Virus record (IMG/VR): IMGVR_UViG_2609459848_000003
From: a virus
Lineage: Duplodnaviria; Heunggongvirae; Uroviricota; Caudoviricetes
Length of the DNA: 28,840 bases
Direction: 5' to 3' (one strand)
Position 1 is the stretch's first letter, and each line of letters begins with the position of its first letter. Under the pieces are notes generated by a model. The model was not told where the DNA came from and ran no database searches. It saw only the letters and a program-made list of their open reading frames with translations. Below, one piece after another: positions 19,624-28,840 of this stretch. A program made the translations under genes and the position numbers.

Positions 19624-21351
19624 TTACTCAGAGTCACCGGCATCAATCGTGTCGCCGCTTATGAAGTTAAGCCCGCCTTTTTTGGCCATTGTCAGCGTTA
19701 CACGAGTGAAGTAATCAGCGCCGTTGCGTGGGTGCATATCGTTGATAGCCGAACCCCACAGCGTGGTACGGTTGACCAGCGCCGGAGTGGTCGGATGCTG
19801 GAACGGGATGGCCGGGACAGCATCACCAGTCACGAAGCCTGCTTTACCCGGATTTTCATCACGGACGTAGCACAGCACATCCATCGAGCTGAACTGAATG
19901 TTCTCTGTCGTTAAGTTCTTACAAATACCAGCAGGTACTTCGTACACTTTCACGTTACCGAACAGGGTACCGATGTAGTGAACATACGGAGTCTGGATAT
20001 AGTCTTCGGCTGGCTGGAAGAAATCCTTCGGCAACTGTTTGAAGAAAGATGCTGCATCAGCACCAGCAAACATCCCCATCGCACCAGAAGATTTAACGCG
20101 CTCAATAATGTCGCGATATACAGTCTGGAATTTGCCACGAATGATGGTTGCCCATACATCAAAGGACTGGTTAACCGGCAGAGCGATGTCAAAGGTGTCG
20201 TTCGCAAGAGTACGCCAGATCATGATGCGAAGACGCAGCATATCCTGTTCATGAGACAGGTATTCCTTCAGGGTGCGGAACTGTAGGGAACCCAGGTCCA
20301 GACCAAATTCACGCTGTGCTTCATACGCCGCCTGTACCGTGTGCTCAGCCGCGATAACGAACTGGCTTGGGAACAGGGTGTATTTCTTCATTTCGTGGTT
20401 GATCAGCGGGATCAGCTCAGGAGCGGCTTCAATATTGATTTCCGTCTCAATTGCGATCTCAGTGCCTTTATCCGGCGCTTTGGAGAACGACAGGGCAATC
20501 TGACCAATGTTGTAGTTCAGAGAGCAGGTAACAGTGATTTGCTCACCAGCAGCATTAGTAAACGAGTGAAGTAGGCTGCCGGAACCGTTATCAACAACAG
20601 ACTTAATACGGTTAACGTAGATATTAGTGCGACCTTTTCGGATTGGTACATTCTGGCCTTCGAAGTCTTCCATCTTGAAGGTTGCGGTTTTGCTGGTGCC
20701 ATCGGAGCTTGCCACCAGCACATAGCGGCGGCGTAACTGGCTGTACACACCGACGGATTGCATGTCCAGAACATCACCAGCAGCATAAGAACCAAAAGAG
20801 GAACCTGCCACGTTAAAGACTTCATAGATGTCGGACTGGTCACGCGTAACCGGAATGAAGGTACACGCATCAGCGGTAGCTGCCCCCAACTGAACAGGCA
20901 GGATCATCGCGAGGAATAAAGGCAGACGCATAACACCGTCAGAAACGCTCATCATCTCTGCTGCGACGGATTCCAGCATCGCTTTATTAGTGGCATCCAT
21001 GCTATTGCGGGTGGACTCAATCAGGCAGTTTTCCAGCGTCTGGTGGCAGGAGGCCAGAATTTCCGGACGCGGCATAGATTTATGTGCTGCGGCGTAGTCA
21101 GCCAGTGCACTTGCCCACGCTGTAGCGATTTGAGCGGTGGCATTATCAGAGATACCCGCAAAAACCGGGTCTTTACGTGCAGCTTCAAGGATAGATGCGG
21201 CACGCGCGGCATCATCTTTAATGAATTGGTTATCAGTACCGAACTGCGCAGTGCTTGCCCAGCCAAGCACAGCTTTAGAGCGTTTTGCGATATCTGCAAT
21301 ACGATTCTGGTATTCGCGTAAGTTACTCAATTTACTCTTCCTTAAACACAA
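19624..21351 (-). CDS. Major capsid protein (575 aa as tracked; likely start is TTG at 21330)
   Basis: Large late ORF immediately downstream of parS/parB, as gene 23 is in P1. The tracked start is TTG; an in-frame TTG at 21330 preceded by SD AAGGAAG is the more likely initiation codon (MSNLREYQ...). Confidence 0.5.
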   Translation of the reverse strand: MCLRKSKLSNLREYQNRIADIAKRSKAVLGWASTAQFGTDNQFIKDDAARAASILEAARKDPVFAGISDNATAQIATAWASALADYAAAHKSMPRPEILASCHQTLENCLIESTRNSMDATNKAMLESVAAEMMSVSDGVMRLPLFLAMILPVQLGAATADACTFIPVTRDQSDIYEVFNVAGSSFGSYAAGDVLDMQSVGVYSQLRRRYVLVASSDGTSKTATFKMEDFEGQNVPIRKGRTNIYVNRIKSVVDNGSGSLLHSFTNAAGEQITVTCSLNYNIGQIALSFSKAPDKGTEIAIETEINIEAAPELIPLINHEMKKYTLFPSQFVIAAEHTVQAAYEAQREFGLDLGSLQFRTLKEYLSHEQDMLRLRIMIWRTLANDTFDIALPVNQSFDVWATIIRGKFQTVYRDIIERVKSSGAMGMFAGADAASFFKQLPKDFFQPAEDYIQTPYVHYIGTLFGNVKVYEVPAGICKNLTTENIQFSSMDVLCYVRDENPGKAGFVTGDAVPAIPFQHPTTPALVNRTTLWGSAINDMHPRNGADYFTRVTLTMAKKGGLNFISGDTIDAGDSE

Positions 21352-25040: not shown

Positions 25041-25301
25041 TATGTGGATAGTTTTTATAAGCGGTGATAACTACCCAGGCTTTCCCGTCAGCACACATCC
25101 TATATCCCGCCAGCACACATTAGCAACCCGTCAGCACACATTTTTATCCCTCCAGCACACATCGGTTTCCCTCCAGCACACATCGCGATACACTTCTAAG
25201 CCAGACGTGGCGCGGCCTGCAACGATCAGGGATCTATATGGATCTAATTGGGATCTGTATGGACCTAATTATTGGATCTACTCAGTGGATAATGTGGATA
25301 A
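25041..25301. other. Plasmid origin oriR: DnaA boxes, Dam GATC cluster, iterons
   Basis: Tandem DnaA boxes AGTGGATAA/TGTGGATAA (25283-25301); five GATC within 25223-25277 at roughly 10-bp spacing; one more DnaA-like box TGTGGATAG at 25043-25051 adjacent to the repA start. Confidence 0.85.
25081..25185. repeat. incC/origin iterons (five direct 19-bp repeats)
   Basis: CAGCACACAT cores at about 25088, 25110, 25131, 25152 and 25174, all in the same orientation, immediately upstream of repA. Confidence 0.9.
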
Positions 25302-25342
25302 GTGAAAAACCGGCCAACAAAGCCGGTTGGAAGGAAACCGTA

Positions 25343-25735
25343 TTATTCTACGCTTTCGATAAGAAGACCATGTTCATAACATTTAAGCTCATCGCCTTCA
25401 TACAGGAATTGGTATCCAACACCACCACCTTCCGGAACATTAGGGAATAAATCATCACTTACCGAAGAACAAATCACACCAATGCAGCGATCAACGCCTT
25501 CTCGTTCTTCAGTGCTGAAAAAATCCTCTTCGGTAAGAACATGAGTACATTGCTCATCAGCATAGGTCGGAAATACATGCTCGATGCAATCCGGGTGTTT
25601 TAAACCAAGCTGATCGGCAAGCTCGAAAGCACGACGGTATTGTTCAGATCCTGGCTTGCCAACAGTGATGTGCTCAATTTTGTAGATTGAAGTCGCTTTG
25701 TTGATAGTTTGCTTTACTGTTACTTTATCAGACAT
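25343..25735 (-). CDS. Hypothetical protein (130 aa)
   Basis: ATG-start ORF next to oriR; no motif recognised. Confidence 0.4.
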   Translation of the reverse strand: MSDKVTVKQTINKATSIYKIEHITVGKPGSEQYRRAFELADQLGLKHPDCIEHVFPTYADEQCTHVLTEEDFFSTEEREGVDRCIGVICSSVSDDLFPNVPEGGGVGYQFLYEGDELKCYEHGLLIESVE

Positions 25736-25746
25736 AAAAATCCCTT

Positions 25747-26079
25747 TTAGTTACCGCTGATAGCGCGGTTGTAATCATTAACGTTGCGATTCTTCCTGTT
25801 AATCCCCATCAGCATCGTTTCTGTATCAAGGATATACGCTGGCAGATCATCAAAATATTCACTGCTAAACTCTGGCATTCTGCACATAAATGCACTTTTG
25901 GGGGCAGGGTGGTTAACCTTTGTCGGCGTCGGCGTTAAATTCGCTGATCGACTCCCGGAGCAACCGCTGAGTGTCAGCAGGAATGCGCTGGCGAACATTA
26001 CCCGCCGCAACCAGTTGTTTCTGAACTTCAGCTTTTCGTTCCATTTGCCTGTCAGCATACTTGGCTTGTTCTGATTCAT
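25747..26079 (-). CDS. Lipoprotein (o-spanin-like), overlapped with the upstream membrane protein gene; true start probably internal
   Basis: Lipobox FLLTLSGC and a Pro/Thr-rich mature part (TPTPTKVNHPAP); the 5' part overlaps the 3' part of ORF 25913-26305 in another frame. Confidence 0.5.
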   Translation of the reverse strand: MNQNKPSMLTGKWNEKLKFRNNWLRRVMFASAFLLTLSGCSGSRSANLTPTPTKVNHPAPKSAFMCRMPEFSSEYFDDLPAYILDTETMLMGINRKNRNVNDYNRAISGN

Positions 26080-26305
26080 TTTTCACTTCCTGGCTGTGAA
26101 AATGTTGCTCTGCTTTGTTCATCGTCTCAATGGTCTGGTTAAGATCCATTATTGACTTATCACGTTCCTTAACAGCCTGATCAAGACTGCCAATTTTCTC
26201 TATGGCTTGCTTTAGCTGATGACGTTCCCATGCAAACCCAGCACCAACAAGTGCGCAAATCAGAACAAGAACACCAGTAGCAGCAAGTTTCTCCTTCAAA
26301 GACAA
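25913..26305 (-). CDS. N-terminally anchored coiled-coil membrane protein (i-spanin-like, 130 aa); start uncertain
   Basis: N-terminal transmembrane segment LAATGVLVLICALVGAGFAW followed by a charged helical region; the tracked start is TTG, 3 bp from the IS66 terminus. Confidence 0.45.
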   Translation of the reverse strand: MSLKEKLAATGVLVLICALVGAGFAWERHQLKQAIEKIGSLDQAVKERDKSIMDLNQTIETMNKAEQHFHSQEVKNESEQAKYADRQMERKAEVQKQLVAAGNVRQRIPADTQRLLRESISEFNADADKG

Positions 26306-26338
26306 AGCGTAAGCGTCAACGGAGCACCGTATTGACGC

Positions 26339-27952
26339 TTATTTATTGGTGAGTACTACGTTCCATGGCAGGAGTTCGTCAACTCGGTTGGAAGGCCATT
26401 CCGGCAGTACGCTCAGGATATGGCGCAGATACGCTTCCGGATCGATACCGTTCAGACGGCAGGTGCCGATCAGCCCGTACAACAGTGCTCCACGCTCGCC
26501 GCCGTGATCGCTGCCAAAGAACATAAAGTTTTTCTTTCCGAGACAGACTGCACGAAGCGCTCTTTCCGCAGCATTATTATCCGCCTCCGCCAGACCGTCA
26601 TCACTGTAATAACAGAGGGCATCCCACTGATTCAGTACATAGCTGAACGCTTCGCCCAGTCTGGATTTTTTCGACAGCGTACCATTCTTCTCCACCATCC
26701 ATTCATGCAGCGACGTCAGTAACACTTTGCTTCGCTGCTGCCTGACGGCAAGACGCTCTGACTCCGGTAATCCCCGTATTTCATCCTCGATGGCGTACAG
26801 TTCACTGATTCGCTTCAGGGCTTCTTCTGCCGTCGCACTTTTGCTGCTGATGTATACATCGTGGATTTTTCGCCGGGCATGGGCCCAGCACGCAACTTCT
26901 GTCAGTGCACCACCTTCACGTTCTGCACTGAACAACCTGTCGTAACCTGTGAACGCATCCGCCTGCAGGATACCCCGGAAGGGGCGGAGGTGTTGCTCCG
27001 GGTGTTTCCCCTGCCGGTTCGGCGAGTACGCGAACCAGACCGCTGGAGGAGATGACGAACCCACATTGCGATCATCCCGGACATACGTCCAGATACGCCC
27101 TGTTTTCGCCTTTTTCTGACCCGGTGCCAGTACCTTTACCGGTGTGTCATCAGTGTGAACCTTGCGGGTGTTCATTACATAACGGTACAGGGCATCATTC
27201 ACCGGTGTCATTAACTGGCAGCACGCGTCAACCCAGTTGGAGAGTAAGGCCCGGCTCAGTTCGACACCCTGGCGGGCAAAGATTTCACTCTGACGATACA
27301 GTGGCAGATGTTCGCAGTATTTTCCCGTTAACACGCGGGCAAGTAATCCGGGGCCCGCGATACCACGCTCTATCGGGCGGGACGGCGCCGGTGCTTCAAC
27401 AATACAGTCACATTTTGTACAGGCTTTTTTTACCCGTTCTGTGCGGATCACTTTCAGGGCACTGCTCACCAGTTCCAGCTGTTCAGCGCTGACTTCCCCC
27501 AGATAATCCAGCTCACCGCCACACTCCGGGCAACAGCTTTCTTCTGGCTCCAGGCGGTGTATTTCACGGGGAAGGTGTGCCGGTAACGGACGACGATGGC
27601 GCGACTGTCGCAACTGGCGGGGAACCTGAGGATCGTCTTCCCGCCCACTGTAACGATCGCTGTCCTGTTCACGTTGTTTCAGCAGAGCCTCAGCCAGTTC
27701 AACTTCACGACGCAGTTTTTCAGAACGGGTACCGAACAGCATCCGGCGCAGTTTTTCTATCTGAGCCCGCAGATGTTCTATTTCCCGTTCATCTTCTTCG
27801 ATCTTTTCTTCGGCACGTGTCAGTGCAGAGCGCAGGAAGGCTTCCGTCTCTTCAACCAGACTCAGTTGCTGGTCTTTCTGACGGAGGGCTTCAGCCTGCT
27901 CAGAGAGCAACCTTTCCAGCTCTGCGATGCGAATGAGGTATTTCTGACTCAT
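26339..27952 (-). CDS. tnpC: IS66-family transposase TnpC (537 aa)
   Basis: Leucine-zipper-like N-terminus, CPECGG zinc-binding motif and LPLYRQ, typical of IS66 transposases. Confidence 0.9.
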   Translation of the reverse strand: MSQKYLIRIAELERLLSEQAEALRQKDQQLSLVEETEAFLRSALTRAEEKIEEDEREIEHLRAQIEKLRRMLFGTRSEKLRREVELAEALLKQREQDSDRYSGREDDPQVPRQLRQSRHRRPLPAHLPREIHRLEPEESCCPECGGELDYLGEVSAEQLELVSSALKVIRTERVKKACTKCDCIVEAPAPSRPIERGIAGPGLLARVLTGKYCEHLPLYRQSEIFARQGVELSRALLSNWVDACCQLMTPVNDALYRYVMNTRKVHTDDTPVKVLAPGQKKAKTGRIWTYVRDDRNVGSSSPPAVWFAYSPNRQGKHPEQHLRPFRGILQADAFTGYDRLFSAEREGGALTEVACWAHARRKIHDVYISSKSATAEEALKRISELYAIEDEIRGLPESERLAVRQQRSKVLLTSLHEWMVEKNGTLSKKSRLGEAFSYVLNQWDALCYYSDDGLAEADNNAAERALRAVCLGKKNFMFFGSDHGGERGALLYGLIGTCRLNGIDPEAYLRHILSVLPEWPSNRVDELLPWNVVLTNK

Positions 27953-27982
27953 GACCGTTTTTATAATGCGGTCAGGAGTTTT

Positions 27983-28333
27983 TTACAACATTGTCAGTGA
28001 GTTACGGCTGGATGTTTTTGGCTGACGCCAGTCCAGCTTATCGAGGAGCATTGCCAGTTGCGAGCGGGTAATGGATACCTTGCCGTCACGTACCGCAGGC
28101 CAGATAAACTGGCCTTCCTCCAGGCGTTTGGTGAACAGGCACAGACCATCAGCATCAGCCCAAAGAATTTTGACGGTGTCACCCCGTCGGCCACGGAAGA
28201 TAAACAGGTGACCGGAGAAGGGATTATCATTCAGCACATGTTGTACCTGTTCTCCCAGTCCGTTGAAGGATTTACGCATATCGGTAACGCCGGCAACGAG
28301 CCAGATACGGGTACCTGATGGGAGTGAGATCAT
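27983..28333 (-). CDS. tnpB: IS66-family accessory protein TnpB (orf2, 116 aa)
   Basis: MISLPSGTRIWLVAGVTDMRKSFNGL...FIFRGRRGDTVKILWADADGLCLFTKRLE is the characteristic IS66 Orf2 sequence. Confidence 0.9.
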   Translation of the reverse strand: MISLPSGTRIWLVAGVTDMRKSFNGLGEQVQHVLNDNPFSGHLFIFRGRRGDTVKILWADADGLCLFTKRLEEGQFIWPAVRDGKVSITRSQLAMLLDKLDWRQPKTSSRNSLTML

Positions 28334-28755
28334 CTTCCCCTCCCGGTCAGTTCACGGATCAACACTGTGAGCAGCTCTGGCGATGGATTTTCCAGCGTCA
28401 TGTTACCGTGACGGAATTCCACCTTGCAGGAACTGGCACTGACTCTGGTCTGAGTGGAAGTGGATAAAGACGGCGCAATGGCCGCCACAGGTTCTTTCTG
28501 CTCATCCGGCGTTATTTCTACAGGTAATAATTCAACGCCAGTGTCAGAAGAGGTCGTTACCGGAAGACGCCGCGAAACACGCCCTTCGTTCTGCCAGAGC
28601 CTGAGCCATTTGAAAATAACATTATCATTGACGCCATTTTCACGTGCAATCTGTGCAACACAAGCTCCAGGTTGTGATGCCAGTTCCACCATACGAAGTT
28701 TGAATTCATTCGAATAGTTTTTACGAGGTTCTTTTCGCCAGTCCTGTAATTCCAT
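28330..28755 (-). CDS. tnpA: IS66-family accessory protein TnpA (orf1, 141 aa)
   Basis: Position first in the IS; helix-turn-helix-like region NYSNEFKLRMVELASQPGACVAQIARENGVNDNVIFKWL; 4-bp overlap with tnpB. Confidence 0.8.
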   Translation of the reverse strand: MELQDWRKEPRKNYSNEFKLRMVELASQPGACVAQIARENGVNDNVIFKWLRLWQNEGRVSRRLPVTTSSDTGVELLPVEITPDEQKEPVAAIAPSLSTSTQTRVSASSCKVEFRHGNMTLENPSPELLTVLIRELTGRGR

Positions 28756-28840
28756 ACTTAGATGTCCGTCTATATCAGATGGGCGTCTAAGTTACCAATT
28801 CTCGTCTGATGGCTACATACGGCGGTCAGTTTACGCTTAC

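Follow-up and report, generated by a model that had tools for sequence, protein, structure and literature searches.

The locus considered here raises two questions, namely whether a pair of overlapping minus-strand genes located beside a plasmid origin encodes a spanin, as a preliminary description of the DNA had proposed from the architecture of the two open reading frames, and whether this particular copy is still able to work. The window, by which we mean the whole stretch of DNA analysed (28,840 nucleotides), is a P1-like segment (~97-98% identity): its region 25300-26308 shares 97.7% identity with phage P1 as well as with P7, SJ46, RCS47 and other P1-like phage-plasmids, and the remainder is collinear with the P1 stretch that extends from tail-fibre gene S to repA. 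The preliminary description had not recognised that the element is P1, that a location by the origin is usual in this phage or that an IS truncates the i-spanin gene. The P1 reference record carries, on the same strand and in this order, upfB, ppfA, mlp, upfA, oriR and repA. Judged by sequence comparison, the open reading frame at 25747-26079 (minus strand) is P1 mlp and the one at 25913-26305 (minus strand) is P1 ppfA. We consider it highly probable that this pair is the P1-type two-component overlapped spanin and that the present copy, hit by the insertion sequence ISEc23, is most likely crippled.

The interpretation of these genes as a spanin is right, already published and not new. Indeed, P1 gp064 and gp063 appear as overlapped i-spanin and o-spanin in a curated table (Kongari et al., 2018; PMC6139136 supplement), in which gp064 is described as a protein of 140 aa with a TMD and no periplasmic Cys, and gp063 as a protein of 110 aa with a LipoP cleavage at 39 and the lipobox TLSG, accompanied by the remark "too long signal sequence" (PMC6139136). 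More recently, ppfA and mlp have been presented as the P1 spanin genes, partly overlapping and belonging to an operon that is not linked with the remaining lysis genes (Bednarek et al., 2022; PMC9025707); according to that paper, it was Summer et al. (2007) who identified the P1 spanin genes from predicted features. The proposal of a spanin made from the architecture thus agrees with both publications, as it does with the homology to P2 LysB/LysC that we report below. In the text of Bednarek et al. (2022), the i- and o- labels are swapped (PMC9025707). Several P1-like GenBank records label the pair Rz/Rz1, and annotation is inconsistent in general: names given to these genes range over "PpfA", "hypothetical" and "endopeptidase Rz", and many records leave the o-spanin uncalled.

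The first gene, ppfA, is represented in the window by a remnant (25913..26308, minus strand) that extends from codon 10 of P1 ppfA to the stop codon at 25913-25915 and shares 99% identity with P1 PpfA over 130 aa; an exact-sequence look-up of this 130-aa remnant returned no match. The open reading frame 25913-26305, which had been taken as a gene, does lie on the minus strand at these positions but is an incomplete gene, the 5' end of which has been cut by ISEc23. Near its N-terminus, the remnant contains a predicted transmembrane segment, LAATGVLVLICALVGAGFA (26231..26287, minus strand; 19-residue Kyte-Doolittle mean 2.35), which is its sole Kyte-Doolittle window above 1.6. The periplasmic residues, ~35% of which are charged, include no Cys. 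In a single-sequence AlphaFold2 model (mean pLDDT 83), PpfA forms two helices (3-106 and 110-128) and the break between them falls at the only Pro of the protein. In one register, the a/d positions of a heptad repeat are 61% hydrophobic versus 21% elsewhere, a value matched by 21 of 5000 shuffles in what is a crude test, and the heptad signal peaks in the 45 residues that follow the membrane segment. Hydropathy, modelled helix and heptad pattern agree with the N-terminal transmembrane helix and charged coiled coil previously described, and the predicted topology, i.e. a single N-terminal TMD followed by a mostly helical or coiled-coil periplasmic domain, is that of an i-spanin.

Regarding the second gene, mlp (25747..26079, minus strand, +1 frame relative to ppfA) is intact and encodes a predicted outer-membrane lipoprotein precursor of 110 aa, 99% identical to P1 Mlp, with one substitution (V32A) in the signal peptide. 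A regular-expression match places the lipobox L-S-G-C at residues 37-40 (25960..25971, minus strand), Cys40 being the predicted lipidation site and the Ser at +2 fitting outer-membrane sorting. The mature protein would count 71 aa and start with CSGSRSANLTPTPTKVNHPAPK. Of the lipobox lipoprotein with a Pro/Thr-rich mature part that had been proposed, the lipobox was found, but the Pro/Thr/Ser content is moderate (6 Pro and 5 Thr overall). Mlp nevertheless combines the features of an o-spanin, that is, a lipobox Cys, a residue other than Asp at +2 and a short mature domain. Its signal peptide is unusually long (39 aa), and the first 27 codons of the mlp frame are poorly conserved (36% identity versus 64-73% for the rest, between P1 and Cronobacter phage JK004), so that the true start of Mlp is uncertain. 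An AGGA motif resembling a Shine-Dalgarno sequence (26088..26091, minus strand) is present 8 nt upstream of the mlp ATG; the same motif is marked in Kongari et al. (2018; PMC6139136), and JK004 has AGGAGG at its position. As for the arrangement of the two genes, mlp begins 226 nt into the ppfA remnant and runs on for 166 nt past the ppfA stop, which generates a 167-nt dual-coding overlap (25913..26079, minus strand) that encodes both the end of PpfA and the beginning of Mlp, with both frames conserved in JK004. This layout, with its +1 frame, corresponds to the "overlapped" class and bears out the earlier description on this point.

By analogy with lambda Rz/Rz1, for which the mechanism has been established, and with P2 LysB/LysC, the function of PpfA and Mlp would be membrane fusion. 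PpfA would be a type II inner-membrane protein displaying a long charged coiled-coil-like helix in the periplasm, and Mlp, translated from the internal +1 start, would after export receive its lipid at Cys40 and reach the inner leaflet of the outer membrane, the Ser at +2 providing no retention signal. The two proteins would then bind each other and bridge the periplasm and, after degradation of the peptidoglycan by the SAR-endolysin Lyz, their complexes would fuse or disrupt the outer membrane as the last step of lysis. Like lambda Rz1, Mlp may engage in an intermolecular disulfide, through its conserved second Cys.

What distinguishes the present copy from that of P1 is a complete ISEc23, a 2532-bp member of the IS66 family (26309..28840, minus strand), inserted after codon 9 of ppfA. 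Indeed, the homology to P1 ends at 26308, and the sequence starting at 26309 (GTAAGCGTCAACGG...) is the ISEc23 terminal repeat. The segment 26309-28840 matches thousands of E. coli ISEc23 copies at >99% identity and contains tnpA (28330-28755), tnpB (27983-28333) and the transposase gene (26339-27952, stop at 26339-26341), all on the minus strand. Compared with P1, ISEc23 stands in place of codons 1-9 of ppfA (MSFFSTLKT), of the AGGAGG ribosome-binding site and of the sequence further upstream, including two predicted P1 promoters inside upfB; what is left is orthologous to P1 PpfA (gp064) and Mlp (gp063), with 99% identity over the shared residues and the same overlap, frame, lipobox and neighbours (upfA, oriR and repA). 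The start codon assigned at 26305 (TTG) is an artefact created by the listing of open reading frames, this TTG being the first start-like codon past the transposase stop, which is in frame, and no purine-rich Shine-Dalgarno sequence precedes it. Between the transposase stop and this codon, the IS end can form a hairpin (26310..26341, minus strand; -18.9 kcal/mol, z = -3.4) that ends 5 nt upstream of the TTG, and no promoter-like sites beyond chance expectation were found near the IS end.

The element therefore does not carry two intact and expressible genes: ppfA is decapitated and mlp is intact. The i-spanin gene is probably disabled, through a loss of expression that we infer. As known spanin systems require both subunits, the spanin is probably defective in this element, which would be expected to lyse its host inefficiently when the outer membrane is stabilised and yet to be a viable phage-plasmid. 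This disruption of ppfA by ISEc23 is the sole new item of the analysis, and is of minor interest. In a survey of 77 P1-like phage-plasmids (PMC9603915), the 21 most conserved genes, all of full length, include mlp and ppfA, which makes the disruption an unusual event.

The insertion further looks private to the element, because the junction is absent from all the collections searched: no place in the plasmid or E. coli complete-genome collections spans both sides of the ISEc23/ppfA junction, and the exact 35-nt junction pattern is absent from viral, genome and metagenome contigs. Some ISEc23 BLAST matches reach 10-20 nt into the ppfA flank; these were rejected as chance gapped extensions, the alignment placing the end of the IS at GTAAGCG. 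Two other ISEc23 copies have the ends GTAAGCG...CGCTTAC and 8-bp target duplications, and a simple insertion thus predicts on the far side CGCTTAC-GACAAAGC-TGTTTTTAACGTAGAAAAGAATGACAT, i.e. the 8-bp duplication, then the 5' end of ppfA and upfB. This predicted far-side junction, with the target duplication GACAAAGC, was not found in genome contigs. As the window stops exactly at the far end of the IS, a simple insertion and a larger rearrangement both fit.

Could the spanin still work in spite of the insertion? Read-through from the IS, followed by re-initiation at TTG 26305 or 26299 after the transposase stop (26339-26341), would yield a PpfA deprived of only 10-12 cytoplasmic residues, with its TMD intact. 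Transcripts of the tnpA-tnpB-transposase operon, which is on the same strand as ppfA, could indeed reach the remnant, and the transposase gene ends in the ppfA frame, with its stop 33 nt before the TTG. Since the remnant retains its TMD and a complete periplasmic domain, a protein started at a TTG could enter the membrane, and mlp retains its own AGGA-ATG start. However, neither TTG is preceded by a Shine-Dalgarno sequence, the native promoters and the strong AGGAGG site are gone, and the hairpin at the IS end, together with a U-rich stretch, could terminate transcription or occlude initiation. We hence regard a working spanin as unlikely in this element and favour a crippled copy, which would represent a natural knock-out of the i-spanin by ISEc23 and, potentially, a ready-made mutant for the study of the P1 spanin. 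CRISPRi knock-down of mlp or ppfA leaves P1 plaque formation unblocked (PMC10695390), from which it follows that an element hit in this way can persist. Spanins are known for a mild laboratory phenotype (PMC9025707), and the dispensability seen by CRISPRi fits such a phenotype, although it is not diagnostic.

Other damaged forms of the pair exist. Another contig has a nonsense mutation in ppfA that is silent in mlp, and 195-aa PpfA-Mlp fusions occur in public assemblies, with 1-nt deletions at at least six sites. That the P1 spanin would be frequently lost in P1-like phage-plasmids living mainly as plasmids appears quite unlikely to us. If true, such losses could mean that domestication repeatedly, and perhaps under selection, inactivates the final stage of lysis; alternatively, some truncated or fused PpfA/Mlp forms could keep an altered function. 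The topology of the 195-aa fusions is opposite to that of unimolecular spanins such as T1 gp11. An origin of these fusions by programmed +1 frameshifting, at the A5 run that precedes the mlp ATG, was considered and rejected, as they result from DNA-level 1-nt deletions at several different sites.

Four diverged P1-like lineages have retained the pair, with identities to the P1 proteins going down to ~30%: PpfA and Mlp are 57% and 65% identical in Cronobacter phage JK004, 31% and 48% in the ~91-94 kb P1-like contigs L016-L018 and the shorter contig L019, and 29% and 33% in the short contig L020. Common to all lineages are the hydrophobic N-terminal segment, the position of which in PpfA is kept in JK004, L016 and L020, the +1 overlapping open reading frame and the lipobox Cys, as well as the second Cys of Mlp within a C-x-(M/L)-P motif. 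The Mlp Cys, L34 and L37 are invariant in five sequences including P2 LysC. In its non-overlapping part, Mlp is 73% identical between P1 and JK004, which indicates a coding constraint in the mlp frame.

Both proteins also have counterparts in phage P2, whose LysB/LysC pair is the prototype of the overlapped spanins. Over its full length, PpfA matches phrog_89, to which P2 LysB belongs (6e-61), at 4e-25, a value to be read with the caution that coiled coils may inflate profile scores. For Mlp, the matches are to its own family, phrog_30284 (4e-78), and, at 4e-5, to phrog_456, the family of P2 LysC (2e-31); reciprocally, P2 LysC matches phrog_30284 at 5e-4. By BLASTP, Mlp aligns with P2 LysC (4e-8, 37% identity over 68 residues) across the lipobox, a Pro-rich stretch and the conserved Cys, and PpfA gave no significant alignment with P2 LysB (E = 58). 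The top NCBIfam matches, phage_LysB (TIGR03495) for PpfA and P2_Rz1 (NF038368) for Mlp, are both sub-threshold (18.6 bits for a cut-off of 92.75 and 14.3 bits for a cut-off of 27, respectively). In Pfam, which contains no LysB model according to the calibration with lambda and P2, Mlp did not match the LysC family PF23793, whereas P2 LysC itself scored 64.9 bits. On these profile and alignment scores, the P1 pair is remotely related to P2 LysB/LysC and falls outside that family by curated thresholds. The organisation of the genes is alike in P1 and P2, the i-spanin gene being followed by an o-spanin gene that initiates within it in the +1 frame and extends beyond its stop; Mlp and P2 LysC share the lipobox Cys, the second Cys and the C-x-M-P motif. 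In contrast, holin Y, endolysin K and lysA precede lysB/lysC within the P2 lysis cassette, a linkage that the P1 genes lack, and the signal peptide reaches 39 aa in Mlp versus ~20 aa in P2 LysC.

With lambda, the resemblance is one of architecture, the P1 pair being unrelated in sequence to lambda Rz/Rz1. A Pfam scan of PpfA and Mlp (E <= 1) returned weak coiled-coil noise and no match to Rz, Rz1 or LysC; lambda Rz and Rz1 match their own Pfam models at 3e-54 and 3e-20. Likewise, neither the family of lambda Rz (phrog_13/PF03245) nor that of Rz1 (phrog_3198/PF06085) is matched by PpfA or Mlp. As in lambda, a type II inner-membrane helical protein would be associated with a short outer-membrane lipoprotein rich in Pro, and mlp, lambda Rz1 and P2 lysC are all read in the +1 register. 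However, lambda Rz1 is wholly embedded in Rz whereas mlp overlaps ppfA only partly, and PpfA differs from lambda Rz in having no periplasmic Cys. The unimolecular spanin T1 gp11 has the same proposed role in outer-membrane disruption, which would be fulfilled here by two proteins.

Regarding the location of the pair, the plasmid origin had been correctly noticed in its vicinity: oriR incC, with five 19-bp RepA iterons (25081..25184), is ~0.4 kb away, outside the spanin unit, with upfA in between. The latter gene (25343..25735, minus strand) begins 11 nt downstream of mlp on the same strand and is probably outside the spanin unit as well; no upfA is found downstream of the pair in lineage L016. 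On the 3' side of upfA, a terminator-like hairpin followed by a T run (25308..25328, minus strand) is likely the end of the operon ahead of oriR. This position by oriR is the ordinary P1 layout. To describe the pair as far from the late structural genes was imprecise, the major head gene 23 (19624-21351, assigned by synteny with P1) ending ~4.4 kb away. The place of the endolysin and holin genes, which the preliminary description had suggested checking, can be read from the P1 record OP279344, where lyz is at 15.8 kb, lydA/B/C at 25.8-27.0 kb and ppfA/mlp at 58.6-59.2 kb; the pair is next to neither lyz nor lydABC in P1, and, given the synteny, the window should contain none of the lysis genes. 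The genes are hence outside a lysis cassette, in or next to which spanin genes are usually, but not obligatorily, located, and P1 is known for having its lysis genes dispersed in this manner (PMC9025707). In P1, a PAAR-like gene, upfC, is present ~0.8 kb upstream of the pair in the same orientation. In L016, the pair stays with upfC-upfB and the downstream genes differ, a gene order which suggests that the pair is linked to the upfC-upfB block rather than to oriR.

A pair that adjoins repA/oriR and is unlinked to lyz and lydAB might instead serve the lysogen, with an envelope function tied to plasmid carriage (e.g., surface exclusion or envelope modification) and Mlp acting as a Bor/Cor-type lipoprotein. 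In favor of such a role, the P1 annotation predicts only sigma-70 promoters upstream, both genes are non-essential for plaques by CRISPRi and the P1 spanin assignment was made from predicted features (PMC9025707). However, both partners independently point to LysB/LysC of the P2 lysis cassette, the TMD, coiled coil and overlapped +1 lipoprotein are kept in four lineages, and in L016 it is with upfC-upfB that the pair stays while the downstream genes differ. In addition, Mlp has no match to any non-spanin functional family in Pfam or PHROGs. An envelope function in the lysogen is thus very improbable, and a P1-type spanin remains the reading that we retain.

That the lipoprotein frame would be a chance open frame in and after a real coiled-coil gene has a negligible probability and is refuted by conservation in the alternative frame, for although gene callers often miss mlp (only a C-terminal piece of 44-46 aa is called in JK004 and L018/L019), the full frame and its lipobox can be followed in three other lineages (65%, 48% and 33% identity), the part outside the overlap is 73% identical between P1 and JK004, and Mlp is homologous to P2 LysC.

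Finally, an exhaustive HMMER profile search indicates that the PpfA family is tiny (37 matches), with proper members confined to P1-like elements. It provided no bridge from PpfA to LysB-type proteins, and its matches beyond P1-like elements consist only of two short contigs and of spurious long coiled-coil proteins, with weak E-values. The most distant HMMER match to PpfA is L021.

In the window, ppfA, the i-spanin gene of the overlapped pair carried by phage P1 (minus strand; remnant at 25913-26308), is interrupted after codon 9 by a complete ISEc23 element of the IS66 family (26309-28840). The far end of the element coincides with the exact end of the window, the second junction lying outside it, and an 8-bp duplication, GACAAAGC, would be expected at this far junction if the insertion were simple. 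None of the collections searched (plasmids, complete E. coli genomes, and viral, genome and metagenome contigs) contained the ISEc23/ppfA junction. The ppfA remnant is in frame with the transposase stop codon TAA (26339-26341). Between this stop and two TTG codons (26305 and 26299), the end of the element forms a 13-bp hairpin (-18.9 kcal/mol) with a U-rich stretch after it. This hairpin could act as a terminator or as a barrier to re-initiation at the TTG codons.

A nonsense change is found in the ppfA gene of a P1-like contig, L008 (Logan SRR21919745, 866-1135), in which CAA is replaced by TAA, converting Q90 to a stop. This substitution is silent in the overlapping mlp frame (AAC to AAT) and the Mlp protein sequence is identical in L008 and in the window. 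The i-spanin gene has here been hit a second time, independently, with the o-spanin left untouched.

Public assemblies also contain 195-aa PpfA-Mlp fusion products (database proteins P0003, P0011, P0017, P0019, P0023, P0041 and P0042, and L010 at 1501-2088), which arise from 1-nt deletions at no fewer than six different sites of the overlap. One variant, a reduction of A5 to A4 immediately before the mlp ATG, recurs in six sequencing runs whose ERR accessions are adjacent. These fusions may be either real mutants or sequencing errors.

Regarding annotation, gene callers miss or truncate the o-spanin gene in diverged P1-like elements, calling only a 44-46-aa C-terminal piece or nothing at all, as for Cronobacter phage JK004 (4230-4562) and for L016 (6278-6607), L018 and L019 of a more distant P1-like group. 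In JK004, every gene shown in the retrieved 8.4-kb stretch is labelled "hypothetical". One paper (PMC9025707) labels ppfA as the o-spanin and mlp as the i-spanin; the sequences show that these labels are reversed, the predicted lipoprotein being the product of mlp.

The Mlp signal peptide, with 39 aa, is unusually long. Between P1 and JK004, mlp codons 1-27 (window 25999-26079) are 36% conserved in the mlp frame and 56% conserved in the ppfA frame. The mlp ATG and a Shine-Dalgarno-like motif are found at a position common to P1 and JK004, the ORF is likewise opened by an equally far-upstream ATG in L016 and in the short diverged contig L020, and an internal ATG at mlp codon 28 is not conserved. 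The assignment of the upstream ATG as the mlp start is uncertain.

A GC-rich terminator-like hairpin with a T run (25308-25328, minus strand) immediately follows upfA, a short distance ahead of oriR, and likely marks the end of the ppfA-mlp-upfA transcription unit. As for the window itself, its left end (position 1) falls inside the tail-fibre gene S, adjoined by the cin/U/U' gene block of the P1 record, and its right end is at an IS; because both ends are near sequence that we take to be repeated, this suggests that the window corresponds to a complete short-read contig.
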